A stretch of DNA of 64,000 nt from an uncultured Pseudomonadota bacterium (GTDB lineage Bacteria; Pseudomonadota; Gammaproteobacteria; Burkholderiales; Eutrophovitaceae): positions 784 through 64,783 of the forward strand of contig CALJLA010000068.1 of NCBI GenBank assembly GCA_937983055.1, written 5' to 3'. Made by a program: the position numbers and the translations under genes. Shown piece after piece: positions 1-19,693 of this stretch; the first letter of the stretch is position 1, and the number at the start of each line of letters is the position of its first letter. The notes under the pieces are model-generated. The model saw nothing but the letters and a program-made list of their open reading frames with translations, did not search any database and was not told the origin of the DNA.

Positions 1-56
1 CCATGATGTGCCGATCCCGAACACGGCTTACATTTTTCGTGTGAACCAGCAGGCCT

Positions 57-1115
57 CTATTCACGCTGCGCAACGAGCGGCCGTGTCGGTGCCGGACGAT
101 GACTGAACAGGAACTGAAACGGGAGATGGCTGCGCAGGGCCCACGCCTTTTCGTTGTGGTGCGCGCCGGGGAACGCGAAATACTGAAGGTTGCCACCATG
201 GGAGTAGCCCCGGGTCGATAGCAGCGCTTGCATGTCGCGGGTGACCTCGTAGTTGTCCTGTGGCCAGCCGCTGTCGAGGTAGATGCGTATGTCGCGGGAC
301 GGTTCCGCAGCGATCCTCAAGAGCAGGTCGTCCCGCCAGCCGAAGGTGCTCGACAGACACGCGGCCATGCCGAAAACGCCTGGCCACTGCCAGGCCAGAT
401 ACAGTGATACGACGCCGCCGAGGGACGAACCCATCACGGCCGTATCTCGAGCGCTGTCGAGCGTGCGATAATCCCGGTCTATCCGCGCCTTCAGCGTCTG
501 TGCCACCACCTGGCCGTAGCTCTCGTATCCTGGCAGCGTGTAATCTTTCTCACGACTTTGCGGATAGATCCCGACGGCAATCACCTTGTCGATCACGTTC
601 ATGTCATTGAGCAACGACAGGGTCTCCCGGATTCGCCAGTCCGCACCACTGAACGATTCGCTGGGGAAGAACACATTCTGCCCGTCCTGCAAGTACAGCA
701 CAGGATAGCGCTTCAGCGTGTTCTCGCCGTAACCGGGCGGTGTGAATACGCGAAAGGCATAGTGCGCTGAGGCATCGGGTGTCGCCAGTTGTTCAACATC
801 GCAGACCGTGCAGCCGCGATCTTCGAAAAAGTAAGGGTAAACACTTTGCTCGCGCGGCCCATGCGCAAGCAACAAGTAATTTTTCCCCTGCGCCCATTGC
901 CGCGCGTTCCCCTGTGCCAGGACGGGCTTGTAGTAGCGGAAGGGTCTGTCCAGGCTGACGCGGAACACGGTGCATTGAGCGTCACTGGATAGGCTGCTGG
1001 CCTCGATGTCAGCGTCCCAGTCTGAATCGCAGCGCAACACGATACGCCCGTCAGTGATGGGGTAGTGAACGCGTAGCACCGTTTCCGTGTGTGCCGTGTC
1101 TCTTTTGGCGGTCAT
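57..1115 (-). CDS. putative esterase (alpha/beta hydrolase, esterase-D/enterochelin-esterase-like)
   Basis: 352-aa ORF with PVLYLQDGQNVF and the nucleophile elbow GSSLGG typical of the putative-esterase fold. It is the last gene of a four-gene minus-strand string. Confidence 0.7.
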   Translation of the reverse strand: MTAKRDTAHTETVLRVHYPITDGRIVLRCDSDWDADIEASSLSSDAQCTVFRVSLDRPFRYYKPVLAQGNARQWAQGKNYLLLAHGPREQSVYPYFFEDRGCTVCDVEQLATPDASAHYAFRVFTPPGYGENTLKRYPVLYLQDGQNVFFPSESFSGADWRIRETLSLLNDMNVIDKVIAVGIYPQSREKDYTLPGYESYGQVVAQTLKARIDRDYRTLDSARDTAVMGSSLGGVVSLYLAWQWPGVFGMAACLSSTFGWRDDLLLRIAAEPSRDIRIYLDSGWPQDNYEVTRDMQALLSTRGYSHGGNLQYFAFPGAHHNEKAWALRSHLPFQFLFSHRPAPTRPLVAQRE

Positions 1116-1127
1116 TGCATCCGTCGA

Positions 1128-1886
1128 TCAGTCATCGCGCGTCCTGCCGGCACCTGCGTTGTCATTTCCATCTGGCGCCGTTGATGGTGTGGCGGCGAGC
1201 GGTCGCGACCAGGTGATGTGTTCGTAGGCGCTTGACCAGAGGAAGCCAAGCGATAGCGCGAAGAGAATCTCTTCAATGGGAACACCCAGCAGCAGAATCC
1301 CGGAAATGCCGGTCAAGTTCCAGACGTGCTCGACGTATTCTGGGTAGGACAGAACGAGGGATAAGAAGAATACGAAATAGAAGAGCCCGAACAGCGCCGC
1401 TCCAGCCAGCATTCTGCGCCACAGATCTGGACGGCAGTAGCCGGCAAACAGACCACCGATGCCTAACGCCAGAATTGCCGAATAAATCGGATTGAACCAG
1501 TCCAGCGCATAGAGCACAAAGAAACTCACCATCGGAGAACTGATTGCGATACGATGCCAGCGATGTCCGGGCAGATGACGATGGTCCGACTCAATGGTGC
1601 CGTGATGCGCCGGGCGTATCCGATCGTACAGCGTGCTGGCGAGACCGCCGACGGCGAACGAAAAGCCCAGGCTCTCGAGATCGAAGCCGGTGGACTCAGC
1701 CAGGTCAAAAAGAGTCGGCGGATTCCAGTAGTCGGGTACAAACAGCGGTTCTGTCAGGCCGAGCGGCATAGTCAGCAGACTGGTGGTCAGCATCTTCCGC
1801 CGGCTCCAGCGATTGCGCAATCCCATGAACACAATCAACCACACGAGGCTCAGTATGGCGGTCCAAACGGCGTAGGCGTACGGCAT
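1128..1886 (-). CDS. polytopic membrane protein, lycopene-cyclase-domain-like
   Basis: 252-aa hydrophobic ORF. The PIEEILFALSLGF motif resembles the PxEE motif of CrtYc/d-type lycopene cyclase domains. The family assignment is tentative. Confidence 0.4.
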   Translation of the reverse strand: MPYAYAVWTAILSLVWLIVFMGLRNRWSRRKMLTTSLLTMPLGLTEPLFVPDYWNPPTLFDLAESTGFDLESLGFSFAVGGLASTLYDRIRPAHHGTIESDHRHLPGHRWHRIAISSPMVSFFVLYALDWFNPIYSAILALGIGGLFAGYCRPDLWRRMLAGAALFGLFYFVFFLSLVLSYPEYVEHVWNLTGISGILLLGVPIEEILFALSLGFLWSSAYEHITWSRPLAATPSTAPDGNDNAGAGRTRDD

Positions 1887-1921
1887 TACGTCTCAGCGCC
1901 CGCGCCGGCCAGTGCCCACGG

Positions 1922-2680
1922 TCATGCCCGCGATCCCGCCGCTGATGTGACGCTCGGCGCCTTGAGAAACCACAATTGCCACAGCGACACGACGATCTGT
2001 ACCAGCAGGCTCGCGCCGAGCAGACCGCCACCCACGACGACGACGTAGGCATACACCGGGTCCCACTTGGTCAGAAACCAGGCCAGGATGTCGGCGAGCA
2101 TCGCTGCAAACGGCAGTACGATCAGCGTCACTTTGAGCCAGCGCCGCATCAGGGACAATCTGAAGATCAAGCCGATCGCCAATGCCAGGATGCCGATACC
2201 GAACAGATGGATGTGCGACAGCCTCATCAGCGTGTGCAGTGACTGGCCCAGATCCACCTCGGCAACCTGCTGAACGGCGGCAAAGTTCGTCAGGTCCGGC
2301 ACGTCCAGGCCTGATTCCGGATTGTGGCACACGGTACAGGATGTGCTCAGGATCGGTTCAATCGTGGTGGCGTACTCGGCTTCGCCGGCACCGCCTTTCA
2401 GCCACGCGACGATTTCGTTCCGGTTATCCAACTGGATGTAGGCCGCCATGGGCCCGCGTAAGGCGGCCTCCAGGCGCGTTCCGCTCCGGTTGCCGTAATA
2501 CGTGTCGGCGATGTCTTGGATGGACACGCCCGGCCGCCCGTCGTGACCCTCGTGGCTCGTATACAGGTAGGTCATTGCCATCAGGTAGCCCATAGCGACA
2601 ATCAACAAGAAGCTGGTGAACAGCACTTTCTCGCTGAGCGTGCAGTCGTAGAATCGGCGGTCGCGCGGCGTCGCTTGCAT
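1922..2680 (-). CDS. membrane protein with a single CxxCH haem-c motif
   Basis: 252-aa ORF with an N-terminal TM segment, a soluble segment containing CTVCH, and then about 3 TM helices. I did not recognise a named family. Confidence 0.5.
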   Translation of the reverse strand: MQATPRDRRFYDCTLSEKVLFTSFLLIVAMGYLMAMTYLYTSHEGHDGRPGVSIQDIADTYYGNRSGTRLEAALRGPMAAYIQLDNRNEIVAWLKGGAGEAEYATTIEPILSTSCTVCHNPESGLDVPDLTNFAAVQQVAEVDLGQSLHTLMRLSHIHLFGIGILALAIGLIFRLSLMRRWLKVTLIVLPFAAMLADILAWFLTKWDPVYAYVVVVGGGLLGASLLVQIVVSLWQLWFLKAPSVTSAAGSRA

Positions 2681-2701
2681 GATTACCCGATGCTTCGCGG
2701 A

Positions 2702-3757
2702 CTAGGTTGGACCGGTCTGTGGCGTGGCGAAGAAGTCCGCGGTGACGCCGAGCGCACGGTCGGTCGCGGCGATGGAGCGAGCCGCGTCGCGCTCCATGCC
2801 GGTCAGCGCTCGGATGGCGTCGATGGTCTCCGGCACGACGATCGCCTGGTTGAAGACCTGGTAGGTGTAGAACGCCTCCTTGCCTTCGACGGCAACACCG
2901 TCCTCCCAGAGCGCGACTTCCCACAAATCGCCTCGCGGCCGGCCGATATCGAGCATGAGTTCGGTGGTGGCATTGAGCGCCACCAGCCCGTCGTCCATGC
3001 GCAGGAATGCAATCCGCGGCGCCGCGCGAAACGCGGCCAGAACCTCATCGCGCGTCGCTTCTTGCGTCAATTCGACCCACCAGGTGTGTAGATGGCTGGA
3101 GTTGTGCGCGGCTTTCACGGCCGTCGTCACGACGTCCAGGGACGGATCGACCGTTTGCGCGTCCGGGCCCTGATGGCTCGGAATCACTTTCTCGGGAACG
3201 ACCGTATTCATGATGCCTTCCGCGTGGCCTTCCCACGGATCCGAAGCACGTCGCACGAGGGTACCCCGGGCACGTTTCAGCAGCCCTGCGGACTTCAGCG
3301 CGCCCAGGGTCCGCACAATCGAGGTCGTATTACAGGAAACCACGCGCGTGCAGTCCCGGTCCAGCGCACTGGCATAGTTGGCCTGGGCGACGAAGGAGTG
3401 CCCGGTGAGCGCATGCGACTCACCGCCCTGGAAGATCGATTTGATCTTGGCCGCGTCGTATCTTGCCCGGTTGCCGGCCGCTACGTGCTTGGGCGTGCAG
3501 TCGACAACGACCGCGGCCTCCGCCAAGAGCTCGTCGAGGGTGCCCGCACTGGCGATATCGTGCGCCGCGAAGGTCGACCGGGCCTCCGGACTCGCCGCGT
3601 ACAGGGGGATGTCCAGGCGATTGGCGGTTCGGGTGCGGTAGTCGGCGACCACGTCGGCAACACCGACCAGCGTCATGTCCGCTTGTTGCTGAACGGCATC
3701 GGCGATGCGCTTGCCGATCACCCCGTATCCGTTGATTGCGACCTTGACTCGACTCAT
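2702..3757 (-). CDS. gap: type II (archaeal-type) glyceraldehyde-3-phosphate dehydrogenase
   Basis: MSRVKVAINGYGVIGKR Rossmann N-terminus and the VVSCNTTS active-site motif of class II GAPDH. The start was moved to the internal ATG at 3757 from the ORF-track start at 3823. Confidence 0.85.
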   Translation of the reverse strand: MSRVKVAINGYGVIGKRIADAVQQQADMTLVGVADVVADYRTRTANRLDIPLYAASPEARSTFAAHDIASAGTLDELLAEAAVVVDCTPKHVAAGNRARYDAAKIKSIFQGGESHALTGHSFVAQANYASALDRDCTRVVSCNTTSIVRTLGALKSAGLLKRARGTLVRRASDPWEGHAEGIMNTVVPEKVIPSHQGPDAQTVDPSLDVVTTAVKAAHNSSHLHTWWVELTQEATRDEVLAAFRAAPRIAFLRMDDGLVALNATTELMLDIGRPRGDLWEVALWEDGVAVEGKEAFYTYQVFNQAIVVPETIDAIRALTGMERDAARSIAATDRALGVTADFFATPQTGPT

Positions 3758-3832
3758 GTTGTTACTCGCTTGTCCGAATGGCGGTGAAGGCGCGCACCCG
3801 GACCATGCCCGGTGCCTGACCACGAAGGTTCA

Positions 3833-3865
3833 ACCGTACGACCTGTACCCAACTGTCAGGTCAAG
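3833..3865 (-). promoter_or_regulatory. MerR-type promoter/operator (TTGACC-N20-TACGGT) facing the gap operon
   Basis: The reverse complement reads CTTGACCTGACAGTTGGGTACAGGTCGTACGGT, with a 20-bp spacer and the dyad GACCTG-N11-CAGGTC. It is an exact inverted copy of the site at 3909-3937. Confidence 0.55.
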
Positions 3866-3908
3866 GCCCGGTGCTCGACGAGGATCGGGCGTCGTTCGAC
3901 CGCGTCGG

Positions 3909-3941
3909 CTTGACCTGACAGTTGGGTACAGGTCGTAGTCT
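3909..3941 (+). promoter_or_regulatory. MerR-type promoter/operator (TTGACC-N20-TAGTCT) facing the SDR-HMBD operon
   Basis: CTTGACCTGACAGTTGGGTACAGGTCGTAGTCT, located 59 bp upstream of the ATG at 4000. It has the same dyad as 3837-3865. Confidence 0.55.
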
Positions 3942-3999
3942 TCCCCGTTTAGCCATCGACGCTTGGCGCTCGATGTCGTTCTGGACCAGGGGATTCAAT

Positions 4000-5331
4000 A
4001 TGCCATCGCATACCGGCGCAGTCTTGATTACGGGCGCCAACGGCCGCATCGGCTCCGCCGTCATGAAGCGTCTTCGCCAACAATTCAGTGACGTGGTGGG
4101 CTTTGATCGACAAGCGTCGTCGCCGCCGCCGGCGGACTGTGTCTTCATACCGGTCGACATCACCTCGGACGCCGACGTGGAGGAGGGTCTTCGGACGCTC
4201 GGCGAGCACCATGGCCGTCGGATCGCGTCGGTGATTCACCTGGCGGCGTACTATGACTTTTTGGGCCGCGCGAGCCCAAAGTACGATGCGATTACCGTCG
4301 AGGGTACGCGACGCCTGTTGCGCGGCTTGAAGTCGTTCGAGGTCGAGCAGTTCATTTTTTCCAGCACCATGTTGGTGCACGCGCCGGGCGAACCCGGGGA
4401 GTTCATCAACGAAGATTGGCCCATTGGGCCAACCTGGGCCTACCCGGAATCCAAGGTGTGCACGGAAGCGGTGATCCATGAAGAGCGGGGCAGTATTCCT
4501 GCGGTGATCCTGCGGCTGGCCGGCGTGTACGACGATGTGTGTCATTCGCCGCCACTGGCGCACCAGATTCAGCGCATCTACGAGCGACAACTGGCCGGTC
4601 ACCTGTACTCCGGCGAGACCTCGCACGGCCAGGCATTCGTTCACCTCGACGACGTCGTGGACGCCATCGAGGCGGCGGTGATGCGACGATCGGAGCTGCC
4701 CGCCGAGGTCCCCATACTCATCGGTGAGCCGGATACGCTGAGCTACGACGAGCTGCAGCACACCTTCATGCGCCTGATCCATGGCAAGTCGTCGGAAACA
4801 CACAATGTGCCCGGGCTCATCGCCAAGGTCGGCGCCTGGCTTCAGAACCTGATGCCCGGCAAGAAACCGTTCATCAAACCCTGGATGATCGATCGCGCCA
4901 ACGACCACTACGCGCTCGACATCACGCGAGCTCGTTCATTGCTGGATTGGCTGCCCAAGCATACGCTGCGGCAAACCCTGCCGAGGATGGTTGCTGCCCT
5001 GCAGGCCGATCCGATCGCCTGGTATCGCGAGCACGGCCTCGAGCCGAGCACCGCCGTCAGAGAACAGGCGCGGCAGGCCGCGCCGGAACCCGTCGCCACA
5101 GCGGCAATCGACCGCAAAAAGCCGCACAGCTGCCCGCTGCACCCGGGAGTTTGTCAATCATCGCCCGGCAATTGTCCGCGTTGCGGGACGGCACTCGAAC
5201 CGCTTGGCGCGCCAGCGACTGCGTATAGCTGCCCCATGCATCCCGAGGTCGTGAGCAAGGAACCCGGTCGCTGCCCGAAGTGCGGCATGCCGCTGGAACG
5301 ATGTGACATCCCGGAGGAAGGCCATGCATGA
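4000..5331 (+). CDS. NAD(P)-dependent epimerase/dehydratase-family SDR fused to two C-terminal heavy-metal-binding (HMBD) zinc-ribbon-like motifs
   Basis: TGANGRIG Rossmann motif and YPESK catalytic YxxxK. The C-terminus carries [24 protein letters not shown] and [24 protein letters not shown]. The start was set at the ATG at 4000. Confidence 0.75.
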
Positions 5332-6913
5332 CCATCATGCCGGGCACGGACACACCACGGCGGCAGACTCCGCTGACGAGTACACCTGCCCCATGCACCC
5401 GGAGGTGGTGCAGAACGAACCGGGGGACTGTCCGAAATGCGGCATGACCCTGGTGTTGCGCGATTCGGCCAAACCGGCGGCTGGACACGGCGACATGATG
5501 GTCGAGAGCCACCGCAATATGCTCTGGCCGCATTATCTCAACCTGATGCTCGGCCTCTGGTTGCTGTTGAGCCCGTTCACGCTCGGTTACATGAGCGATT
5601 TCGTGCCCGATGCCAAGCAGCTCTGGGTTATGGCCGATCGCGGATTGCCGCCGTTCGAGCTGCGCAATCTGTGGATGACCTGGAGCGATGTGATCAGCGG
5701 CATCCTGGTCATCGTCTTCAGCGTCCTGTCAGCCGATGCCTGGCGGCGCAATCCCTGGGCGCAATGGGCCAACGCCTTCGTCGGCGTGTGGCTGTTGTTG
5801 GCGCCGCTGGTGTTCTGGACACCCCTGCCTGAGGCCTATGCCAACGGTACCCTGGTCGGCGGTCTGGTCATCGCGCTCTCGGTGCTCATCCCGATGATGC
5901 CGGGGATGAGCATGGCCGGCATGATGGGCAAGCCGGATGTGCCGCCGGGCTGGGCCTACACGCCGTCGAGCTGGTTGCAGCGCATGCCGATTGGTGTACT
6001 CGCCCTGATTGGCTTTCTTATCGCGCGCGTGCTCGGCGCCTATCAGCTCGGCCACATCGATACCGTCTGGGAGCCGTTTTTCGCCGGTGTCGGCGAGAAC
6101 AAGGACGTGATGAACGGCACCGAGTCCATCATCACCTCGGACGTCTCCAAGGCCTGGCCGATCGCCGACGGCGCGCTGGGCGCTATCGTCTACACGCTCG
6201 AACTGGCCATGACCTGGATGGCCGGCAAGGACCGCTGGCGCACCATGCCCTGGATGGTGCTCGGGCTGGCAGTGCTGATCGTACCGCTGGGCGTGGTCAG
6301 CATCTATTTCATTATCATCCAGCCGATCGATATCGGTACCTGGTGCACGTTGTGCCTGATTGCCGCACTGGCGATGGCGGTGATGATTCCGTATTCGCTC
6401 AACGAGTTCGTCGCCATGGGACAGTTCCTGGTCTGGTCGCGCAGGCAGGGCAAGCCGTTCTGGCGCACCTTCTGGACCGGCGACGCCATGGACGGCGGTA
6501 GCGACGATGATGCCAGGGGGCTTGTAGCCAGCCCGCGGGAGCAATGGGCGCAGGCCACGCGCGGCGTGACCTATCCCTGGACCTTGAATCTCAGCATCGG
6601 CATCGGTGTCTGGCTCACGTTCACGCGCCTGACCTTCGGCAATGCGGGCGCCATGGCCAATAGCGATCACCTGATCGGTGCGCTGGTGGTGACGTTCTCG
6701 ATCATGGCCTGGGCCGAGGTCGGACGCGCGGTGCGCTTCATCAACGTGCCCTTCGGCGCATGGTTGATCGCCGCGCCCTGGTTGCTCGACGGCGCAGGGT
6801 CGTCACTGGCTGCCTGGAACGGCGTTATTGCCGGCATACTGCTCATCGTGCTGGCCATCCCTCGAGGCACGATCAAGGAGTCTTACGCAGGCTGGGATCG
6901 GCACATTGTCTAG
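5324..6913 (+). CDS. membrane protein: N-terminal HMBD + SPW-repeat-like segments + VKOR-like core
   Basis: [24 protein letters not shown] is followed by [14 protein letters not shown] and [13 protein letters not shown] (SPW-like). A polytopic core carries WCTLCLIAA (CxxC in a TM helix, as in VKOR). A GGAGGAAG RBS lies before the ATG at 5324, and there is an 8-nt overlap with the upstream gene. Confidence 0.65.
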
Positions 6914-7036
6914 CGTCGACGGCTCCGGTACCGGCGTCCGGCTCGAACGCAAGTGTCTGGCCAGTCTCCCCGAACCGTTAACGCGCCGGCACTCAAGGCC
7001 GGGGCGGCGCCCGGATTCAGCAAAGGAGGATCCACA

Positions 7037-8047
7037 ATGCAACTAGGAATGTTTGGTCTGGGGCGCATGGGCAGCAACATGGTGCGGCGGCTCATGAACG
7101 ACGGGCACGAGTGCGTGGTCTACAACCGCAGCGAAGGCGCCGTTCGACAGCTGCAAAGCGAAGGCGCACTTGGGGTGTTTTCGCTCGAGGAACTGATTGT
7201 CCGCCTGGAGCGCCCCCGCCGCATCTGGTTGATGATTCCGGCTGCCGTCGTCGATGACGTTCTGGCGCGCCTGGTGCCGTTGCTCGACAGCGACGACATC
7301 GTGATCGACGGCGGCAACTCGAATTACCGCGACGATATACGCCGCGGTACCGAACTCGGACAGCAAGGTGTTCATTATCTCGACGTCGGCACCAGCGGCG
7401 GGGTGGCCGGGCTGGAACGCGGCTACTGCCTGATGATCGGCGGCGACACGGACGTCGTCTCGCAGCTCAGCCCGATTTTCGCAAGCCTCGCGCCGGGTGT
7501 CGCGGCGGCAACGAAGACCCCGGGCCGAGGCCCGGGCACGGCGGAGCAGGGCTATCTGCACTGCGGTCCGCACGGCGCAGGGCATTTCGTCAAGATGGTG
7601 CACAACGGCATCGAGTACGGCGTGATGCAGTCCTATGCGGAAGGCTTCAACATTTTGCGCAACGCCAATATCGGCAAGCGCCAGCACGATGTCGATGCTG
7701 AGACCGCGCCAACGCAGGATCCGGCACATTACGCCTACGACTTCGACCTGGCAGAGATCGCCGAGTTGTGGCGCCGCGGCAGCGTTATCGCCTCCTGGCT
7801 GCTCGATCTCACGGCGGCCGCGCTGTTGCGTGATCCGGCCTTGCAGCGTTACGCGGGCCGGGTTTCGGACTCCGGCGAAGGCCGCTGGACCATCACTGCG
7901 GCGATCGAAGAAGGCGTTCCGGCGCCCGTGTTGAGTGCGGCGCTTTATGCCCGGTTCAGCTCACGCGGTGAGGCGGAGTTCGCAAACCAGGTGCTCTCGG
8001 CAATGCGCGAGGGCTTTGGCGGTCACGTCGAAAAGCCGGACGATTGA
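7037..8047 (+). CDS. gnd: 6-phosphogluconate dehydrogenase, decarboxylating (short form)
   Basis: MQLGMFGLGRMGSNMVRRL NAD(P)-binding N-terminus, with YLDVGTSGG and HFVKMVHNGIEYG motifs. An AAAGGAGGA RBS lies upstream. Confidence 0.85.
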   Translation: MQLGMFGLGRMGSNMVRRLMNDGHECVVYNRSEGAVRQLQSEGALGVFSLEELIVRLERPRRIWLMIPAAVVDDVLARLVPLLDSDDIVIDGGNSNYRDDIRRGTELGQQGVHYLDVGTSGGVAGLERGYCLMIGGDTDVVSQLSPIFASLAPGVAAATKTPGRGPGTAEQGYLHCGPHGAGHFVKMVHNGIEYGVMQSYAEGFNILRNANIGKRQHDVDAETAPTQDPAHYAYDFDLAEIAELWRRGSVIASWLLDLTAAALLRDPALQRYAGRVSDSGEGRWTITAAIEEGVPAPVLSAALYARFSSRGEAEFANQVLSAMREGFGGHVEKPDD

Positions 8048-8049
8048 GC

Positions 8050-9432
8050 ATGGACACCCACGACGCCGATGCACTGGTCATATTCGGGGTCACCGGCGAC
8101 CTGGCGTACAAGAAGATCTTTCCGGCCCTGCAGGCGTTGTTCGAGCGCGGCGATCTGAGCCTGCCCGTCGTCGGCGTGGCACGGGGCGGCTGGACCCTGG
8201 AGCGGCTGCGCGAGCGGGTGCGGGCGAGCCTTCGGGAGCATGGCAGCGTCGATGCTGACGCGTTCGCGCGCCTGTCGGCGCAACTGCGCTACGTCGACGG
8301 CGACTATCGCGATCCAGCCACCTACGACCGACTGAAGCAGGCACTGCACGACAGCCAGCGGCCACTGCACTACCTGGCGATCGCGCCGGGGATGTTCGAG
8401 ACCGTGGTGCGGGGGCTGGCGAGCGCCGACTGTTCCCGCCACGCACGCGTCGTGGTCGAGAAGCCGTTTGGCCGCGACCTGGCCTCAGCCCGTGCGCTCA
8501 ACCGCACGCTGCATCAGGTATTCCCGGAAACCGCGGTGTTTCGCATCGATCATTACCTGGGCAAGGAGGCGGTTCAAAACCTGTTGTACTTCCGCTTTGC
8601 CAACACCTTCCTCGAGCCGATTTGGAATCAGCATCACGTCGCTGCTATTCACGTGACCATGGCCGAACGGTTCGGCGTGCAGGGTCGTGGCAAATTTTAC
8701 GAGGAGGTGGGCGCCATTCGCGACGTGGTGCAAAACCACCTGCTGCAGGTCATCGCGCTGCTGACGATGGATGCGCCGACGGGTCGCGATCCGCAAGCGA
8801 CGCGCGCGGAGAAGCTGCGCATTTTGCGTGCGATGCGGCCGGTCGATCCCTCGCAGCTCGTGCGCGGGCAATATCGTGGCTATCGTGACGAGCCCGGCGT
8901 CGCGGGCGACTCCGACGTTGAGACCTTCGCCGCATTTCGCTTGTACATCGACACCTGGCGCTGGTCCGGTGTGCCGATCGTGGTGCGTACCGGCAAATGC
9001 CTGCCGCTGACGGTCACGGAGGTGATCGTGCAGCTGTGCCAGCCGCCGCTCGCCATTTTCGATCCAGTCACGCCGGCAGCGGCAAACTACTTTCGCTTCC
9101 GCTTGAGCCCGGAGGTCGTCATCGCGGCCGGCACGCGCGTCAAGCAACCGGGGGACACCATGCGGGGCGAAGCCGCGGAGTTGATCGCCCGTCACGCACG
9201 CGCCGGGGCCGACCTGCCCTATGAACGGCTATTACGCGATGCCATCCGCGGTGACCCGGCACTGTTTACCCAGGACGAAAGCGTGGAGGCGGCCTGGCAG
9301 GTCGTCGAACCGATGCTCAGGGCGGGTGTGTCGGTAACGGAGTACGAGCCGGACACCTGGGGACCGACCAGGCTGGCGCCACAACCGGAGGGATGGCGAA
9401 ATCCCGAAGCGGAGGCGAGCAAACCGTGTTAA
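8050..9432 (+). CDS. zwf: glucose-6-phosphate 1-dehydrogenase
   Basis: IFGVTGDLAYKKIFPAL and RIDHYLGKE signature motifs. The start overlaps or abuts the gnd stop. Confidence 0.9.
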   Translation: MDTHDADALVIFGVTGDLAYKKIFPALQALFERGDLSLPVVGVARGGWTLERLRERVRASLREHGSVDADAFARLSAQLRYVDGDYRDPATYDRLKQALHDSQRPLHYLAIAPGMFETVVRGLASADCSRHARVVVEKPFGRDLASARALNRTLHQVFPETAVFRIDHYLGKEAVQNLLYFRFANTFLEPIWNQHHVAAIHVTMAERFGVQGRGKFYEEVGAIRDVVQNHLLQVIALLTMDAPTGRDPQATRAEKLRILRAMRPVDPSQLVRGQYRGYRDEPGVAGDSDVETFAAFRLYIDTWRWSGVPIVVRTGKCLPLTVTEVIVQLCQPPLAIFDPVTPAAANYFRFRLSPEVVIAAGTRVKQPGDTMRGEAAELIARHARAGADLPYERLLRDAIRGDPALFTQDESVEAAWQVVEPMLRAGVSVTEYEPDTWGPTRLAPQPEGWRNPEAEASKPC

Positions 9433-9507
9433 TCACGAAGACACAACACGCGCGGGCTCGGGTTCGCGGCCGGCGTGGGTAAGCGGTAGTTGAGTTAAGG
9501 AGTCAAG

Positions 9508-9672
9508 ATGGACTGGCTGGCAGAGAATTGGTTTTGGGTGCTGATCGGTATTGTGTTTGTCGCGATGCACCTGTTCGGACATGGTGGCCATGGTGGCCGC
9601 GGCGGGCATGCCGGTCACGGCGGCTCGCGGGATGCTGAGCGCGGCGATCAGAAGCAGCAACACCGGCATTGA
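9508..9672 (+). CDS. small membrane/His-rich peptide, DUF2933-like
   Basis: 54-aa ORF below the ORF-track cutoff: MDWLAENWFWVLIGIVFVAMHLFGHGGHGGRGGHAGHGGSRD.... An AAGGAG RBS sits 6 nt upstream. It lies immediately 5' of a P1B ATPase, which is the usual DUF2933 context. Confidence 0.5.
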   Translation: MDWLAENWFWVLIGIVFVAMHLFGHGGHGGRGGHAGHGGSRDAERGDQKQQHRH

Positions 9673-9690
9673 CCGGTCAACGGGACAATC

Positions 9691-12060
9691 ATGAGCAAAT
9701 CTACTATTGAAGTCGCGGGACTGCTGTCCGCGTCAAGCGCGGCCGGCGTCGAAAAGCAATTGATGCGACTGCGCGGCGTACGCAAAGCCGAAGTCAATTA
9801 TGTGGCTGGCAGCGCGACCGTCACCTACGACGAAAACGTCATCGATCTCGCGGCAATCAAGGCACAAATTCATGCCTGCGGGTACCACTGCCGGGGGGAG
9901 ATGGTGCCGAAACACATCTGCGCCCCGGCCAATCCGGCCGACGGGCCAACGGCTGCGGTCGCCGATCATCCGGCAACCCATCATCATGACACGCACGCTG
10001 CGCCCGAAGCACAAGGCGACGAGACGGCGGGCATGGCGCACGAAATGGGCCACGGTGGCGGGATGGACATGCAGGCCATGGTGCGCGATATGCGCAAGCG
10101 CTTCTGGGTCTGTTTGGCGTTCACCGTGCCGATCTTCATTTACTCGCCGATGGGGGGGCTGTTCACACCGCCAGCGCCGCCCTTCGGCCTGGACCTCAAC
10201 CTGTGGCTTTTCTTGTTGGCCAGTATCGCGGTCATCTGGCCAAGCTGGCCATTCTTCGTGGCCGCCTGGCGGGCGCTGAAAAACGGTGTCCTCAACATGG
10301 CGGTGCTGGTGGTGCTGTCGGTCGGTACCGGCTACTTGTTCAGTCTCGGGGCGACGTTTTTTTTCGACGGTGTGCAATTCTTCGAGGCGGTGGCGGTACT
10401 GCTGGTGTTCATCCTGCTCGGGCACTGGTTGGAGATGCGCGCTCGCGCCGGCGCCTCCGATGCGATTCGCTCTCTGATGGATCTCGCGCCGCCCAAGGCC
10501 ACCGTGCTGCGCGATGGCCGGGAACTGGAGATACCGACGGCGGAGGTGGCCAAAGACGACATCGTCGTGATCCGGCCCGGCAACAAGATCCCGGTGGACG
10601 GCGAGGTGCTCGAAGGCGAATCCCAGGTGGATGAGTCCATGCTCACCGGCGAATCCATGCCGGTCGGCAAGAAGCCCGGCGACACGGTGATCGGCGCCAC
10701 GATCAACAAAAGCGGCAGTTTCAAGTACCAGGCGACCAAGGTGGGCGCCGATACCGCCCTGGCACAGATCGTCAAGCTGGTACAGGAAGCACAGAACTCC
10801 AAGGCCCCCGCCCAGTTGCTGGCGGACAAAGCCTCGCAATGGCTGGTGGTGATCGCGATTGTCATTGGTCTGCTGACGTTTGCGGCCTGGTTCTGGTGGC
10901 TCGGTCAGACCTTGCTGTTTGCCGTCACTCTTACGATCACGGTATTCGTCATCGCCTGCCCGGATGCTCTGGGCCTCGCCACACCCATGGCGGTGATGGT
11001 AGGCACGGGCCTTGGTGCGAAGAACGGCATTCTGTTCAAGAATGCTTCCGCCCTCGAAGAGGCCACCAAGCTCGATATCGTCGTTTGCGACAAGACCGGT
11101 ACGTTGACCATGGGTGAACCGCAAGTCGTGGAGGTCGTCGCCGGCGATGCCGGCGAGGATGCCGTTCTTAGCCTCGCCGCCACCGTGGAACAAGGCTCGG
11201 ACCATCCACTGGCCCAGGCCATTCAGCGTCGCGCCGAGGGACTCACGCTCTCGCCGCTGCGTGGCTTTGAGAACATTGAGGGCAAGGGTGCGCGCGCCGA
11301 GGTGGACGGTCAAACCGTGTTCCTCGGTAATCGGCGTTTGATGGACGAGGAGGGTGTTGACCTGGCAAGCCTCGCAGACGAGGCGGCTCGCCTGCAGGGC
11401 GCCGGTCAGACCGTGGTGCACATTGCCCACGGCGGCCGCCTGGTGGGACTGATCGCGATCGCCGATGCGCCACGACCGACGGCGGCAGCGATGGTGGCAA
11501 AAATGCGCGAGCGGGGTGTGGAGGTTGCCATGCTCACCGGCGACAATCAGGCGACCGCCGAGCGTATTGCGGGGGAACTCGGTATACAGACGGTGATAGC
11601 CGACGTGTTACCCGCGCAAAAAGCCGACAAGATCAAGGAACTGCAAGCGCAAGGCAAGAAGGTCGGGATGGTCGGCGACGGCGTCAACGATGCGCCAGCA
11701 TTGACCCAGGCGGAGGTTGGATTCGCGATCGGCGCCGGTACCGACGTTGCCATGGAAAGCGCTGACGTCGTGCTCATGAAAAGCGATCCCTATGACGTGC
11801 TTGGCGCTATCGAACTGTCGCGTGCCACGCTGCGCAAGATGCACCAGAATTTGTTCTGGGCGGTGGCGTACAACGTGATTGCCTTTCCGGCGGCGGCTGG
11901 GGTTTTCTATCCACTGGTGATCAGTCCTGAAGTGGCGGCACTTGCGATGTCGGGCAGCTCGGCGTTGGTGGCAGTGAACGCGTTGCTGCTGAAACGCACG
12001 CGCCTGGAGGGCATCCGAACCGTGCGGTCCGCTACCAGCATAGATCCGCAAAGCGACTGA
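9691..12060 (+). CDS. heavy-metal P1B-type ATPase, CopB-like (His-rich N-terminus, CPD transmembrane motif)
   Basis: [15 protein letters not shown], YNxxxxP and MSGSS motifs. The TM motif reads [12 protein letters not shown]. The N-terminal HMA-like fold has SASS in place of CxxC and is followed by a His/Met-rich stretch. Confidence 0.9.
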
Positions 12061-12090
12061 AGATTGCACCGTCAATTCCCTGGTCACCGC

Positions 12091-12122
12091 TTGACGTGTG
12101 TCGGACATACACGTTGTAGAGT
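12091..12122 (+). promoter_or_regulatory. candidate MerR-type promoter (TTGACG-N20-TAGAGT) with ACGTGT/ACACGT dyad
   Basis: TTGACGTGTGTCGGACATACACGTTGTAGAGT lies between the ATPase stop and pgm. It has a long spacer and a dyad ACGTGT-N9-ACACGT. Confidence 0.4.
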
Positions 12123-12281
12123 CCGCGGGTAGACCGAAGAAGCGTACTCGAGGCTGGCCATGACTCCTGTAAGTTCAGTATCTTGCTGCCGCTACTGCGT
12201 TCCATCGCAGGGTGCCACCGAATTAGCGAGTTGCCGCGGCGGCATCGACACGCGCGCCGTCGGTCTGCACGAGATTGATTC

Positions 12282-13997
12282 GTGAGTGGCGTCGCCGAGT
12301 CAGCCACAGACACGAGCGTAGTCGCAGGGAAACCCGCGTCACGCGAGATGCTGATTGACGTATCGAAGCTCGTAGAGGCGTACCACGCCGAGCGGCCCAA
12401 TCCTCGTGTTGCGGCCGAACGAGTCGCGTTCGGGACGTCGGGCCACCGGGGTTCGGCGCTTTCCAGGAGTTTCAACCAGAACCACATTCTCGCCATCAGC
12501 CAGGCCATTTGTGACTACCGACGGACACAGGAGTTCGACGGGCCACTGTTTATTGGCATGGACACCCATGCCCAGTCCGAGCCAGCGTTTGCCACGGCGC
12601 TCGAGGTGCTGGCGGCGAATGGCGTCCAGGCTATGATCGCCGGCGACGAAAAATACACTCCTACGCCCGCCATCTCTCACGCTATCTTGCAGTACAATCG
12701 CACCGGCCCAGCAGGTCTGGCCGACGGCATCGTCATTACCCCATCACACAACCCGCCCGACAGCGGCGGCTTCAAGTACAACCCACCGACCGGCGGACCG
12801 GCGAACACGTCAGTGACGGACTGGATCGAAGCCAGGGCCAACGAGCTGTTGCAACAGGACCTGGTCGGCGTGCAGCGGATGCCGATCGAAAAGGCGCTGC
12901 GTGTCAGCACAACCCATCGCTACGATTACCTCAATACCTATGTCAACGACCTCGATCAGGTCGTTGACATGGCAACAATCCGCGCCGCCGGGATCCGCAT
13001 CGGGGTCGACCCCCTGGGCGGCGCCGGGGTCAACTACTGGCCGGCAATTGCGGAGCGATATGGCCTGGATCTGGACGTCGTCAATGCGGTCGTGGACCCG
13101 ACCTTTAGTTTCATGACGCTGGATTGGGATGGGCAGATCCGTATGGACCCGTCGTCAGAGTACGCGATGCAACGGCTAATCGCGTTCAAGGACCACTACG
13201 ACGTTGCGCTCGGCTGCGATCCTGACCATGACCGGCACGGCATCGTCGTGCCGGATGAGGGTTTGATGCCGGCAAATCACTATCTGGCGGTTGCCATCGC
13301 CTATCTTTACCGTCACCGGCCGGGCTGGCGCTTCCCCGCAGCCGTGGGCAAAACCATCGTCAGCAGCCAGATGATTGACCGGGTGGCCGAGAGTGTCGAG
13401 CGGCGCGTCTATGAAGTGCCGGTCGGCTTCAAGTGGTTCGTGGCAGGCCTCAAGGATGGATCGCTGGGGTTTGCCGGCGAAGAGAGTGCCGGGGCGTCAT
13501 TCGCGCGACGTGACGGACACGTCTGGACCACGGACAAAGATGGCCTGGTGCCGGCGCTGCTCGCCGCCGAGATGACTGCGCGAAGGGGTCGAAACCCTGG
13601 CGAAGCCTATCGCGAACTGGTGCAGGCGTTCGGTGCTTGCGCCTACACCCGCATTGAAGCCCCGGCTACGGCCGCGGAGAAATCGATCATCGCCAACCTC
13701 ACAGCGGAACAGGTTCAAGCGACCGAGCTCGCCGGCACAGCTGTCGACGGCGTCCTGACCCGTGCGCCGGCCAACAACGCATCCATCGGCGGCTTGAAGG
13801 TTACGACGGCACAGGGCTGGTTTGCTGCGCGTCCGTCCGGCACAGAAGCCCTGTACAAAATCTACGCCGAGAGTTTTCGCAACACGGATCACCTGCAACG
13901 TATCGTCAACGAAGCACAACATCTGATTGGCGAAGTACTCGCAGCCGCCGCAGGGTCCGGCCCGTCGGCTGCGACATCGGCAAGGAAGGCCCCGTGA
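12282..13997 (+). CDS. pgm: phosphoglucomutase (alpha-D-glucose phosphate-specific)
   Basis: FGTSGHRGSA and TPSHNPPDSGGFKYN motifs. By recall it is collinear with E. coli Pgm along its whole length. Confidence 0.9.
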   Translation: MSGVAESATDTSVVAGKPASREMLIDVSKLVEAYHAERPNPRVAAERVAFGTSGHRGSALSRSFNQNHILAISQAICDYRRTQEFDGPLFIGMDTHAQSEPAFATALEVLAANGVQAMIAGDEKYTPTPAISHAILQYNRTGPAGLADGIVITPSHNPPDSGGFKYNPPTGGPANTSVTDWIEARANELLQQDLVGVQRMPIEKALRVSTTHRYDYLNTYVNDLDQVVDMATIRAAGIRIGVDPLGGAGVNYWPAIAERYGLDLDVVNAVVDPTFSFMTLDWDGQIRMDPSSEYAMQRLIAFKDHYDVALGCDPDHDRHGIVVPDEGLMPANHYLAVAIAYLYRHRPGWRFPAAVGKTIVSSQMIDRVAESVERRVYEVPVGFKWFVAGLKDGSLGFAGEESAGASFARRDGHVWTTDKDGLVPALLAAEMTARRGRNPGEAYRELVQAFGACAYTRIEAPATAAEKSIIANLTAEQVQATELAGTAVDGVLTRAPANNASIGGLKVTTAQGWFAARPSGTEALYKIYAESFRNTDHLQRIVNEAQHLIGEVLAAAAGSGPSAATSARKAP

Positions 13998-16540
13998 GCG
14001 AGCAAATTATTGCTGACGATCTGGCTTACAGTCTGTTGCCCTTCGGCATCGAGGGTGTGGATGCGCTGGTTGAGTTGGCCCTGGATTTACGGTCCTCGTG
14101 GCATCACGGCACCGATACGCTGTGGCAGCAGCTCGATCCTGAGCTTTGGCAAGCCACCCAGAATCCCTGGGTCGTGCTGCAGACAGTCTCGCGGGAGCGG
14201 CTGGAACGCTGTCTGGCCGACGATGCTTTTCGTAAACACGTCGATAAGCTGGTCCGGAGCAGACGGGATGCGGCACGCGCCCCCGCGTGGTTCCAACAAC
14301 ACCATGCGCAAGCCCCGTTGAACGCCGCTGCCTATTTCAGCATGGAGTTCATGTTGAGCGAGGCGCTCCCCATCTACTCGGGCGGGCTCGGCAACGTGGC
14401 GGGCGATCAGCTGAAAGCGGCGAACGATCTCGGCGTGCCCGTGATTGGCGTGGGCTTGCTATACCAACAAGGCTATTTTCGCCAACTGATAGGCCCGGAC
14501 GGCATCCAACAGGCGGCGTATCCCTACAACGATCCCGGACAGCTGCCTGTGACGCCGTTGCGCCATGCCAACGGTGAGTGGCTGCGACTGAAGCTGGACC
14601 TGCCGGGTCATTCGATCTGGCTGCGTGCCTGGCAAGCCCGGGTCGGTCGTTTGAAACTGTATTTGTTGGACACCAACGATGCGGCCAATCATCCGCCCTA
14701 TCGCGGCATTACCAGCGAACTGTATGGCGGGGGATCGGAATTGCGCCTGATGCAGGAAATGGTGCTGGGCATCGGCGGTTGGCGTTTGCTGTCGACGCTC
14801 GGTGTCCAACCCGACGTCTGCCACCTCAATGAAGGGCACGCGGCACTGGTGGTGCTCGAACGCGCGCGCCAGTTCATGCTTGACACCGGTGCGAGCTTCG
14901 CTGTGGCGCTCGCCGCAACGCGCGCCGGTAACCTGTTCACCACGCACACGGCGGTGCCCGCTGGCTTCGACCGCTTCACCTCGGCGCAGATGGAGCACTG
15001 CCTGGGCACCTACGCCGAGACGCAGCTCGGTATTGCTCGCGATGAGTTGTTGGCTCTGGGCCGTCAGCGTCCCGATGACGTTACCGAGCCGTTCAATATG
15101 GCCTATCTCGCGATTCGCGGTTGCGGCGCGGTCAACGGGGTAAGCTGGCTGCACGGCCGGGTCAGCCGTCGCTTGTTCGCTGCCTTGTTTCCGCGCTGGG
15201 CCGAGCCGGAAGTGCCGATCGGACACATCACCAATGGTGTGCACACACCGACCTGGGATTCCGCGCAGGCGGACGCCTTGTGGACCGAGGCCTGCGGCCA
15301 GGAACGCTGGCTGGGCACCACCGAAGCGCTGGGGCGCGACATCTGCTGTGTCTCGGATGCGGAGCTTTGGCAGTTCCGCAGCGCCGCCAGCGCAGCGCTG
15401 GTTGATTACGTTCGCGAGCGTCTGTCGCAACAACGGGCTGCCGCCGGCCCGACACCGAATGCGATCGAGAGCGGCGCGCAGCCGCTCGATCCGGGGACGC
15501 TCACCATCGGCTTCGCGCGCCGTTTTGCGACCTACAAGCGACCGGACCTGCTGCTGCACGATCCGGCGCGATTGTTGAAGTTGCTCACGGACCCCGAGTG
15601 CCCGGTGCAACTGGTCATTGCCGGCAAGGCGCATCCGGCAGACGCCGCCGGGCAGGCGCTGATCCGGCGCTGGATCGAATTCGCACAGTGGCCCGACGCG
15701 AAGGATCGCGTGGTCTTTCTCAGCGACTACGACATGCACATGGCTGAGCATCTGGTGCAGGGCGTTGACGTCTGGCTCAACACGCCGCGACGGCCGTGGG
15801 AAGCCAGCGGCACGAGCGGCATGAAGGTGTTGGTGAACGGTGGGCTCAATATCTCCGAACTGGATGGCTGGTGGGCGGAAGCCTACACGCCGGAGGTGGG
15901 CTGGGCGCTGGGCGACGGTCAGGAACACGGTGACGATCCGGCCTGGGATGCGACTGAGGCCGAAGCGCTTTATGACCTTCTGGAACACAAGGTCGCTCCA
16001 GAATTCTACCAGCGAGACGAGCACGGCATCCCGCGCGCCTGGGTGGCGCGCATGCGCAACAGCATGGCGGAGTTGACGCCGCGGTTTTCCACCAATCGCA
16101 CGGTACGCGAATACACCGAACGCTATTACCTACCGGCTGCCGCCGCGTACCGCGCCCGCGCGGCGAATTCGGGGCAGTTGGCGGAGAGCATCGTGAACTG
16201 GCGTCGCCGGCTGGACGATCACTGGCCGACCCTGCAATTCGGCGAACTCACCGTTGCAACGAGCCACGAGCAGCACGACTTTTCGATTGAGCTCGATCTG
16301 GGCGAGTTGGGTGCGGACGATATCACGGTCGAACTTTACGCCGAGCCGCAGGAGGACCAGGCACCGGTGCGTGTACCCATGACACCCGGTGAGACGTCGA
16401 ACGGTACCGACAAGCGTTGGCTGTACGCCGCCTCGGTACCCGCCGAACGACCACCCGAGCACTACACAGCACGAGTGGTGCCGCGGTATCCCGACGTGGC
16501 GGTGCCGCTGGAAGCGCTGCCTATCCTTTGGCAGCGATGA
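13994..16540 (+). CDS. glgP: alpha-glucan (glycogen/maltodextrin) phosphorylase, GT35
   Basis: 848-aa ORF with GGLGNVAGDQLKA and EASGTSGMK (PLP-lysine region). The GTG start overlaps the pgm stop (GTGA). Confidence 0.9.
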   Translation: MSEQIIADDLAYSLLPFGIEGVDALVELALDLRSSWHHGTDTLWQQLDPELWQATQNPWVVLQTVSRERLERCLADDAFRKHVDKLVRSRRDAARAPAWFQQHHAQAPLNAAAYFSMEFMLSEALPIYSGGLGNVAGDQLKAANDLGVPVIGVGLLYQQGYFRQLIGPDGIQQAAYPYNDPGQLPVTPLRHANGEWLRLKLDLPGHSIWLRAWQARVGRLKLYLLDTNDAANHPPYRGITSELYGGGSELRLMQEMVLGIGGWRLLSTLGVQPDVCHLNEGHAALVVLERARQFMLDTGASFAVALAATRAGNLFTTHTAVPAGFDRFTSAQMEHCLGTYAETQLGIARDELLALGRQRPDDVTEPFNMAYLAIRGCGAVNGVSWLHGRVSRRLFAALFPRWAEPEVPIGHITNGVHTPTWDSAQADALWTEACGQERWLGTTEALGRDICCVSDAELWQFRSAASAALVDYVRERLSQQRAAAGPTPNAIESGAQPLDPGTLTIGFARRFATYKRPDLLLHDPARLLKLLTDPECPVQLVIAGKAHPADAAGQALIRRWIEFAQWPDAKDRVVFLSDYDMHMAEHLVQGVDVWLNTPRRPWEASGTSGMKVLVNGGLNISELDGWWAEAYTPEVGWALGDGQEHGDDPAWDATEAEALYDLLEHKVAPEFYQRDEHGIPRAWVARMRNSMAELTPRFSTNRTVREYTERYYLPAAAAYRARAANSGQLAESIVNWRRRLDDHWPTLQFGELTVATSHEQHDFSIELDLGELGADDITVELYAEPQEDQAPVRVPMTPGETSNGTDKRWLYAASVPAERPPEHYTARVVPRYPDVAVPLEALPILWQR

Positions 16541-16574
16541 GCGCGGCAGGACAGACAAGAAGGGGCTACTGACA

Positions 16575-17252
16575 ATGCAAGACTACATCGCCCATTCGGG
16601 TACCTGGGCCTTGGCGCTGATCATGATCGTAATCGCCTCCTGGCTGCTGTATCGCTTCCTGGCGCCGAAGAGCTGGCGGGAGTGGGCAAGCGCCGGTCTG
16701 GTGCAGGCCTTCATCATCGCCCTGTACGCGGAAATGTACGGCTTCCCGCTGACGATTTATCTGCTGGTCCGCTTCTTTGGCATGGACAGAATCAATCTGA
16801 ACGCCAATTTGTGGTCGACATTACTCGGTATGGGTGAGACCGGCATGATGATCGCGATGCTGCTGGGCTACGGCCTGCTGTTTATCGGCATCGGCCTGTT
16901 TATCCAGGGGTGGCGCGAGCTCTACCGCGCACGCAAGGAAAACCGGCTCGCAACGGATGGCCTGTACGGCCTAGTGCGCCATCCACAGTACTCGGGACTG
17001 TTTCTCGCATTATTCGGCGAGGGGGTCGTGCATTGGCCGACCGTGTTTTCCATTACCGTGTTTCCGTTGATCGTCGTGGCTTACGTGCTGCTCGCACGAC
17101 GCGAGGAGAAAAAAGTGATCGCCGAGTTCGGCGATGCGTACCGCGCCTATCGGCGCCAGGTACCGATGTTCTTTCCGCGTGCGGGCCAGTGGAAGCAACT
17201 CATTGCGCGCTCCAATATTTCAGAGCCAGGACGCCATGACCGTCCAGGATGA
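16575..17252 (+). CDS. isoprenylcysteine carboxyl methyltransferase (ICMT)-family membrane methyltransferase (CzcN-like)
   Basis: LATDGLYGLVRHPQYSGLFLALFG motif and a polytopic profile. The start was set at the ATG at 16575 (MQDYIAH). Confidence 0.7.
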   Translation: MQDYIAHSGTWALALIMIVIASWLLYRFLAPKSWREWASAGLVQAFIIALYAEMYGFPLTIYLLVRFFGMDRINLNANLWSTLLGMGETGMMIAMLLGYGLLFIGIGLFIQGWRELYRARKENRLATDGLYGLVRHPQYSGLFLALFGEGVVHWPTVFSITVFPLIVVAYVLLARREEKKVIAEFGDAYRAYRRQVPMFFPRAGQWKQLIARSNISEPGRHDRPG

Positions 17253-17296
17253 GGCTTGTCGACGGTGTCGGTGACCACGGCAGGCTAACGTCGCGC

Positions 17297-17328
17297 TTGA
17301 CTTGAGTCCGGCATACAGGTCCTAAAGT
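17297..17328 (+). promoter_or_regulatory. MerR-type promoter (TTGACT-N20-TAAAGT)
   Basis: TTGACTTGAGTCCGGCATACAGGTCCTAAAGT with dyad GACTTG-N11-CAGGTC, located 55 bp upstream of the HMA gene. Confidence 0.5.
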
Positions 17329-17382
17329 TACCAAGAATCGCACGGCTTGCGCGCAACCTTTCCGGCAACCAGGAGTCTCACG

Positions 17383-17634: not shown

Positions 17635-17689
17635 CGCTAATCGATCATCCTCTGTTGCGGTCGGCGCCGCGCTGCGAGCCGCATCACTA

Positions 17690-19682: not shown

Positions 19683-19693
19683 TTATTGCGGCT

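Follow-up and report, generated by a model that had tools for sequence, protein, structure and literature searches.

What could keep two operons at the same regulatory setting when they are transcribed away from each other? The question is raised by a 242-nt gap in a 64,000-nt stretch of DNA from an uncultured bacterium of the Pseudomonadota (hereafter the window), in which one 29-bp sequence occurs twice, in opposite orientations, between two groups of genes. A first-pass annotation, made from the letters alone, had placed a type II GAPDH (GAPDH-II) on one side and an SDR-HMBD/VKOR/gnd/zwf/ATPase operon on the other, an arrangement with which gene annotation agrees, and had read the two copies as promoters of the MerR type. 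Our analysis points to a 101-bp block composed of two complete back-to-back MerR-type promoters, which would co-induce both operons and whose arms are kept identical by concerted evolution; we give this reading a probability of about three in four.

Two promoters in one intergenic gap

The 29-mer CTTGACCTGACAGTTGGGTACAGGTCGTA lies at 3909-3937 on the forward strand and, across a gap of 43 nt, recurs at 3837-3865 as its exact reverse complement, so the perfect inverted duplication described in the first-pass annotation is borne out to the base, as are the TTGACC-N20-TAnnnT build of each copy (TAGTCT rightward, TACGGT leftward) and the dyad GACCTG-N11-CAGGTC inside each (Table 1). Identity runs from one base before the -35 element to the first two bases of the -10 element, and the inverted repeat extends weakly beyond this, to 42 nt at 86% (3837-3878 with 3896-3937). 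Dyad symmetry in the pair itself is confined to the outer 5-6 bp. Folded as a single strand, the block reaches -47.3 kcal/mol (z = -9). No further copy of the 29-mer with up to three mismatches was found in the rest of the window, or in 100 shuffles, and the zero-mismatch dyad occurs at only two places in the 4.47-Mb genome, both of them in the pair.

Long spacers of 19-20 bp that hold a palindrome are the signature of promoters controlled by the MerR family (PMC1526738, PMC8113463). Both copies have a -35/-10 spacing in this range instead of 17 bp, the dyad operator lies within the spacer and overlaps the 3' end of the -35 element, and the genome encodes linked candidate regulators of the family. 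Between positions 3650 and 4100, a consensus scan returned no promoter with a 16-18 nt spacer and no terminator-like site was found, which leaves the two long-spacer elements as the sole promoter-like signals of the 242-nt gap; an Rfam scan of positions 1-20000 returned no RNA family. Transcription is predicted to start near 3826 on the left and near 3948 on the right, which would place about 69 nt of leader before the GAPDH-II ATG (3757) and about 52 nt before the SDR-HMBD ATG (4000). The block is unlikely to be an assembly artefact, since it lies in the middle of a 69-kb contig and the same inverted pair is present in independently assembled MAGs (L015-L017).

Table 1. Features of the promoter pair, the flanking operons, the predicted regulon and the candidate regulators. 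Positions are those of the window unless a contig is named.
Feature	Position	Strand	Details
Leftward promoter copy	3833-3865	-	-35 TTGACC 3864-3859; 20-nt spacer 3858-3839; -10 TACGGT 3838-3833
Rightward promoter copy	3909-3941	+	-35 TTGACC 3910-3915; 20-nt spacer 3916-3935; -10 TAGTCT 3936-3941
Operator dyad, left copy	3840-3862		GACCTG-N11-CAGGTC, centre 3851
Operator dyad, right copy	3912-3934		GACCTG-N11-CAGGTC, centre 3923; 72 bp from left centre
Segment between the two -35 elements	3866-3908		43 nt; not conserved in relatives (87 nt in L016)
Left operon	57-3757	-	GAPDH-II first; same gene order in L016, L017, L019 and L022
Type II (archaeal-type) GAPDH	2702-3757	-	NCBIfam NF003251, 431 bits
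252-aa ORF	1922-2680	-	left operon
Lycopene-cyclase-domain protein	1128-1886	-	left operon
Esterase	57-1115	-	left operon
Right operon	4000-12060	+	SDR-HMBD, HMBD-VKOR-SPW, gnd, zwf, possibly P1B ATPase
SDR/epimerase with C-terminal HMBD motifs (SDR-HMBD)	4000-5331	+	right operon
HMBD-VKOR-SPW membrane protein	5303-6913	+	right operon
gnd	6953-8047	+	right operon
zwf	8044-9432	+	right operon
P1B heavy-metal ATPase	9691-12060	+	right operon membership possible
Regulon site before pgm-glgP	12091-12122	+	variant dyad ACGTGT-N9-ACACGT
Regulon site before 83-aa HMA (CopZ-like) gene	17297-17328	+	gene at 17383-17634
Regulon site before cyclopropane-fatty-acid synthase (cfa) gene	18201-18232	+	gene at 18273-19550
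Regulon site before pair of SPFH/Band-7 genes	24781-24812	+	
Regulon site before multicopper oxidase gene	28760-28791	+	directly after MerR paralog B gene; oxidase gene at 28907-30853
Weaker site before cysteine-free MerR (paralog C)	34576-34607	-	
Regulon site before cytochrome c gene	37086-37117	+	gene at 37292-38125, His-rich tail
Regulon site before DUF1232 protein gene	just left of window		
Regulon sites on contig C113	C113		targets DUF411/CopG and glgC
Regulon sites on contig C185	C185		targets porin and Rieske protein
MerR paralog A	22192-22746	+	helix TPAAVRYYARTGL; cysteines in GYRCF, PCDEV and CPLIE
MerR paralog B	28140-28694	+	helix TPATVRYYARSKL; ortholog arrangement kept in L095 and L096
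MerR paralog C	34127-34552	-	helix SPETVRYYTRLGL; no cysteine; own weaker site
MerR paralog D	contig C185		SPCPEV and SLCHLID

The same build across the genome and beyond it

Is this promoter build peculiar to the pair? We scanned the genome with the seed TTGACnTG-N9-TACAGGTC, allowing up to two mismatches, and then with a position matrix, on which 15 sites genome-wide scored above 26 bits (41.6 for the leftward and 43.8 for the rightward copy of the pair) and the reversed-matrix control reached at most 18.9. Twelve of the 15 lie on the window's contig and the rest on contigs C113 and C185. The -10 element TAnnnT was outside the seed pattern, yet it is kept at the 20-nt distance in every one of the 15, and all are oriented toward an ORF that starts 30-230 nt downstream. 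The target classes are copper handling, GAPDH-II, pentose-phosphate enzymes, glycogen enzymes and envelope proteins. Specificity resides in the full promoter and operator pattern alone: a search with the bare dyad at one mismatch gave 15 genome matches against 14 in the control.

Some of these promoters resemble each other closely. The sites at 28760-28791 and 37086-37117, 8.3 kb apart in direct orientation, differ at about 5 of 33 positions and have TTGACCTTGATG...GGGTACAGGTTG in common, and this near-duplication suggests that regulon promoters have spread by copying. Elsewhere, half-sites ACGTGT/ACACGT replace ACCTGT/ACAGGT, in both halves at 12091-12122 and in the right half only at C113:4274; these variants may mark the specificity of a different paralog.

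Beyond this genome, a search of 400 genomes of the same class with MerR paralog D as query found homologs in 55, and we examined the best 29 of the 55 loci, each about 3.4 kb long and each from a different genome. At least one site of the pair's build is present on the merR strand in 23 of the 29, mostly just upstream of merR or at most 61 nt after it, against a chance expectation below 0.03 sites. Commonly, merR is followed by the gene for a P1B ATPase that carries YHS/HMBD repeats; at other loci the next gene encodes a small thioredoxin-like, Met-rich periplasmic, CusC-like or Rieske protein. A matrix built only from the sites of the 23 other genomes, and thus independent of site discovery in our own, has the consensus CTTGACCTGTGTGTAACGCACAGGTTGTAGACT and recovers the same 15 sites in the genome studied here, with a control maximum of 17.9 bits. 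The operator of this family is a 9-3-9 palindrome, ACCTGTGTG-N3-CACACAGGT, set in the 20-bp spacer. The pair keeps its outer ACCTG/CAGGT and departs from the 9-3-9 consensus at the inner positions, and scores 28.1 bits (leftward) and 28.0 bits (rightward) on the external matrix, against 38 bits for the best sites of the genome. The MerR-type reading of the first-pass annotation is well supported at sequence level, both by the recurrence of the build at 15 promoters and by the recovery of the pair with a matrix drawn from the clade in other genomes.

The clade and its operator also occur on plasmids. On Alteromonas macleodii plasmid pAlt83_a (L193, 7926-8435) the motif, here with a 19-nt spacer, lies upstream of merR and a P1B ATPase gene, in the order site, merR, P1B ATPase, cupredoxin, DUF2933, ICMT. 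On a Methylophaga pinxianii plasmid (L194, 6067-12782) it follows merR directly, between glgP and glgX, the order being glgP, merR, site, several small ORFs, glgX; this is a second linkage of glycogen genes to this MerR clade. In the literature that we searched we found no described regulator with this operator and no MerR-controlled GAPDH/zwf islands, and within that literature the operator family and its MerR clade appear to be undescribed.

Candidate regulators

Which protein would bind the pair? The genome holds at least twelve MerR-family sequences, among them the two paralogs at 22192 and 28140 that had been proposed as regulators, here A and B, whose genes are both present. Paralogs A, B, C and D have near-identical recognition helices of the form VRYY[AT][RQ], where the CueR-, ZntR- and Hg-MerR-like proteins of the same genome have [IL]R[YF]YE instead, and the genes of B and D are each directly followed by a regulon site. 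In the earlier claim that both operons respond identically to one regulator, the equal response is a prediction from the operator and spacer that both copies share; the single regulator is the weaker part, given four paralogs with near-identical recognition helices, and the A/B pair that had been named is one option among four that could compete for the two promoters. We tried to assign the pair to A/B over D by the type of inner half-site (GGGTACAGGT, the type found in the window's pair, as against C[A/G]CACAGGT), and gave this up because the orthologous pairs in L019 and L022 carry the other type.

Paralogs A and B fall outside the named metal-sensor groups. They score 59-90 bits on the ZntR, MerR, CadR and CueR models, whose equivalog cut-offs are 143-168: on the CueR model TIGR02044, A reaches 62 and B 59 bits (cut-off 147), below membership of CueR/HmrR; on the ZntR models the two reach 82-87 bits (cut-offs 143 and 168), on the MerR (Hg) model 80-83 (cut-off 151) and on the CadR/PbrR model 65-68 (cut-off 151). 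The best match of paralog B among solved structures is the MerR of Bacillus megaterium (PDB 4UA1). In the alignment the equivalents of Cys79 and Cys123 are kept (in PCDEV and CPLIE) and that of Cys114 is missing, so A and B retain two of the three Hg-binding cysteines of MerR. The effector cannot be read from sequence, owing to this cysteine pattern, with A and B lacking the Cys114 equivalent and C lacking cysteine altogether; from the content of the regulon and the HMBD-rich ATPases beside members of the clade, we suspect copper or silver.

Several other MerR-related elements were seen on the way. At 41203-41514 lies a copy of a MerR-B-like gene that is truncated at its 5' end and matches residues 80-183 of B at 62% identity; a CueR-like paralog (41669-42040) comes next. 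On contig C263, the sequence CTTGACTCTGGAGCAGAGTCCAGAGTTTAGACT (C263:3674-3708, minus strand; 20-nt spacer) is a promoter of the classical ZntR type, divergent from a ZntR/CadR-like MerR gene (C263:3781-4161). About 1.5 kb to the right of the window's end, CTTGACCCGGTACTGCGGTACAGGGTGTAGTCT (C68:66342-66376, plus strand) resembles a firmicute-type MerR operator and is divergent from MerR paralog E (C68:66321-66007; helix SRETLRYYERAGL).

Two copies that change together

Why are the two arms identical? GAPDH-II stands beside the SDR-HMBD operon in only four lineages: the window, three closely related MAGs labelled Woeseiaceae or unclassified (L015-L017), a gammaproteobacterium of UBA7803 (L022) and a Pseudomonadales MAG (L019). 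Compared within a genome, the GAPDH-side and SDR-side promoter cores differ at 0 of 28 positions in the window, 0 of 28 in L016, 1 of 28 in L022 and 6 of 28 in L019; between genomes the core differs at 2-8 of 28. The L016 pair is again an exact inverted repeat, of 28 nt with arms 87 nt apart, and differs from that of the window at two positions, at which both L016 copies carry the same changes. In L022 the promoters are 1772 nt apart, with a cfa gene and its own site in between, and differ from the window at 5-6 positions, all in the central spacer. In L019 a gene for an MscK-like channel lies between the two promoters. As far as these comparisons go, the two copies evolve in concert, and homogenisation is not universal, as the 6/28 of L019 indicates. 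The earlier annotation had taken the identity as base-by-base conservation of each copy; concerted evolution fits better, since orthologous pairs differ between genomes and not within them. At 2345-2444 of L019, the SDR-HMBD promoter also stands back to back with a second site, with 38 nt between arms that are 77% complementary, and this second site is predicted to drive a 1171-aa MscK/KefA-like mechanosensitive channel gene.

The comparison rests on four lineages because no divergent GAPDH pair was found at the 80 metagenome loci returned by a protein scan of metagenome contigs with SDR-HMBD; one of the 80 (L113) has a related site upstream of its SDR-HMBD gene. A DNA search with the 242-nt intergenic region gave no meaningful match among 60 relatives and no match at all among 72,556 plasmids, the region being too diverged to be matched at DNA level.

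Could the arms have stayed identical without any exchange between them? Independent purifying selection on each promoter, with all 28-29 positions mattering, would account for the coincidence, in the window as in L016, of the identical stretch with the functional promoter core, and for a core that differs at only 2 of 28 positions between these two while their flanking intergenic DNA is unalignable. We nevertheless hold it unlikely. The central spacer, where the window and L022 differ at 5-6 positions, is freely variable across the remaining 13 sites of the genome, and every change between genomes is present in both copies; by simple counting, such parallel identical changes would arise by chance with a probability of about 3e-4 (L016) to 4e-8 (L022). 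Purifying selection on a fixed sequence thus fails on two counts, a spacer that is free to vary and lineage-specific changes that the copies share. The identity might instead reflect youth, that is, a recent one-off inverted duplication in this lineage, as perfect identity and the weak 13-nt extension of the palindrome would suggest, but L015-L017 and L022 have the same divergent pair, identical or nearly so internally and unlike that of the window, in relatives whose flanking proteins are only about 70-77% identical to the window's, which makes a recent origin very improbable.

The other doubts concern what the block is. It could be the operator of a non-MerR regulator, or an element for an alternative sigma factor, with the long spacer incidental; the palindrome arms of the pair are only 5-6 bp. 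Against this, in 23 of 29 unrelated genomes the motif adjoins a gene of a single MerR clade, TTGAC and TAnnnT are kept at a fixed 20-bp spacing, and the operator centre is placed as in the operators of CueR, ZntR and MerR (PMC1526738), so that we see little room for such a reading. Perfect 29-nt terminal inverted repeats around 43 nt also call to mind the ends of a miniature mobile element, or a site of recombinase inversion that would act as a phase-variable switch. This is the least credible of the readings considered: the block is a single locus with no other copy in the 4.47-Mb genome, its flanks CAACCG and GTCTTC are unmatched and show no direct duplication, so that neither the copy number nor the target-site duplication of a miniature inverted-repeat transposable element is seen, no recombinase gene lies nearby, and the block occupies the same position between the same two operons in other genomes.

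If the arms evolve in concert, as we favour, one is probably corrected against the other, most economically through template switching during replication at the quasipalindrome or through short-tract gene conversion between the inverted copies; selection for an equal response may contribute. That template switching turns imperfect inverted repeats into perfect ones has both experimental and comparative support in proteobacteria (PMC5941160, PMC7202029), and such a model suits arms that match inside each genome yet vary from one genome to the next. The documented cases are mostly short hairpins (terminators, REP-like), whereas here the arms are two promoters, and unlike those hairpins the L022 promoters are near-identical across 1.8 kb; over the 1772 nt between them, template switching would be plausible only if the cfa gene was inserted recently.

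Proposed mechanism and known MerR systems

How might the pair work? In the model that we propose, each arm would be a sigma-70-like promoter with one operator for a dimer of the VRYY[AT][RQ] MerR clade. Without inducer, the over-long spacer would hold both promoters off; once the inducer is present, which is probably Cu(I) or some similar thiophilic metal, dimers on the operators would distort and shorten the spacers, and RNA polymerase would then fire in both directions. The outcome would be co-induction of the GAPDH-II operon and the SDR-HMBD/VKOR/gnd/zwf operon, within a regulon of at least 15 promoters. Distortion and shortening of a 19-20 bp spacer by the regulator is the established activation mechanism of the family (PMC8113463, PMC8169799). 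Because operator and spacer are identical, the same affinity, torsional requirement and induction threshold are predicted at both promoters; output could still be unequal, as the -10 hexamers differ and so do the leaders (about 52 and 69 nt).

The operators compiled by Permina et al. (PMC1526738) provide a frame for comparison: ACCTTCCC-(5)-TGGAAGGT with a 19-bp spacer for CueR, ACTCTGGAGTCGACTCCAGAGT with a 20-bp spacer for ZntR, TCCGTAC-(4)-GTACGGA with a 19-bp spacer for proteobacterial MerR, and ACCGTGTAC-(4)-GTACAGGGT with a 20-bp spacer for firmicute MerR. Judged by spacer length and right half-site, the present operator family is closest to the firmicute type, yet distinct from it. The spacer is likewise 20 bp, the firmicute right half-site GTACAGG(G)T closely resembles the GGGTACAGGT of the pair (PMC1526738), and the likeness agrees with 4UA1 as the best structural relative of paralog B. 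However, the firmicute operator measures 22 bp with a core of ACCGTG, the present one 21 bp with a core of ACCTG; the Cys114 equivalent of the B. megaterium protein is absent from paralog B; and mer genes are absent from the targets, while another part of the contig holds a canonical mer operon with a dedicated MerR (paralog G).

The copper activators CueR/HmrR of E. coli and other proteobacteria, MerR-family proteins that act by spacer distortion (PMC8169799, PMC8113463), offer a second likeness. Their operator at PcopA has the same outer bases ACCT...AGGT and also overlaps the 3' end of TTGACC (PMC1526738), and their regulon, as here, includes a P1B ATPase, a multicopper oxidase and a chaperone. 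The present half-sites, however, are not those of CueR, whose operator reads ACCTTCC-N7-GGAAGGT, and the spacer has 20 bp against 19 bp for CueR; the CueR sensor has two loop cysteines and Ser at position 77, whereas here a single cysteine lies in the loop and another at the start of the helix; and the genome encodes CueR-like proteins besides (paralogs F and Y). Divergent transcription from a MerR operator in an over-long spacer is known from merR-merT of Tn21/Tn501, where two overlapping divergent promoters, that of merR among them, share one operator. In the present block each promoter has a full operator of its own, with 72 bp between the operator centres; no regulator gene lies behind either copy, and both divergent promoters are presumably activated, unlike those of mer. 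SoxR-SoxS of E. coli is a functional parallel, in that stress, sensed by a protein of the MerR family, leads in the end to more glucose-6-phosphate dehydrogenase and a larger supply of NADPH; control of zwf there is indirect, through SoxS and in response to redox-cycling agents, whereas here zwf and gnd lie directly behind a MerR-type promoter in a metal island.

What purpose would such a pair serve? Copper is reported to poison class I GAPDH and pentose-phosphate function in Gram-positive cocci (PMC6350627, PMC7733945, PMC10249872), and a metal-induced spare GAPDH together with zwf and gnd would make physiological sense, as a hypothesis. On a wider and more tentative reading, which we regard as possible without favouring it, the twin promoter forms a single unit, in evolution and in regulation, of a widespread, uncharacterised clade, present in about 14% of the sampled genomes of the class and normally guarding HMBD-rich copper ATPases, that captured central carbon metabolism; template-switched arms would give both operons an equal metal threshold, and their products would bypass copper-poisoned class I GAPDH and pentose-phosphate enzymes. 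If the predicted control of GAPDH-II, zwf and gnd by a metal-type promoter holds, resistance islands would carry replacement metabolic enzymes besides pumps, under the same switch. The promoter type itself is ordinary, and the lockstep evolution of the two arms is the unusual feature: the pair offers a clear natural case of promoters that evolve in concert, and bears on how co-regulation is kept exact. The presence of the clade and its operator on plasmids of culturable Alteromonas and Methylophaga opens the prediction to bench work.

Origin of the flanking operons

The genome also encodes a class I GAPDH, on contig C297, so the type II enzyme of the island is a second isozyme. GAPDH-II is absent from 150 other genomes of the same order and common in Burkholderiales, Nitrospira and Chloroflexi, which argues that the locus was acquired horizontally. 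On the other side of the pair, no matrix site precedes the P1B ATPase gene (9691-12060).

A separate group of GAPDH-II loci came to light in these searches. The 160 nt before the gene are virtually identical across many genera of Burkholderiales and Xanthomonadales (loci L047-L067; Achromobacter, Hydrogenophaga, Stenotrophomonas, Variovorax, Diaphorobacter and others). The MerR-type site is absent there, the GAPDH-II gene stands after another ORF in an operon, and the arrangement looks like a recently spread mobile element that carries GAPDH-II.
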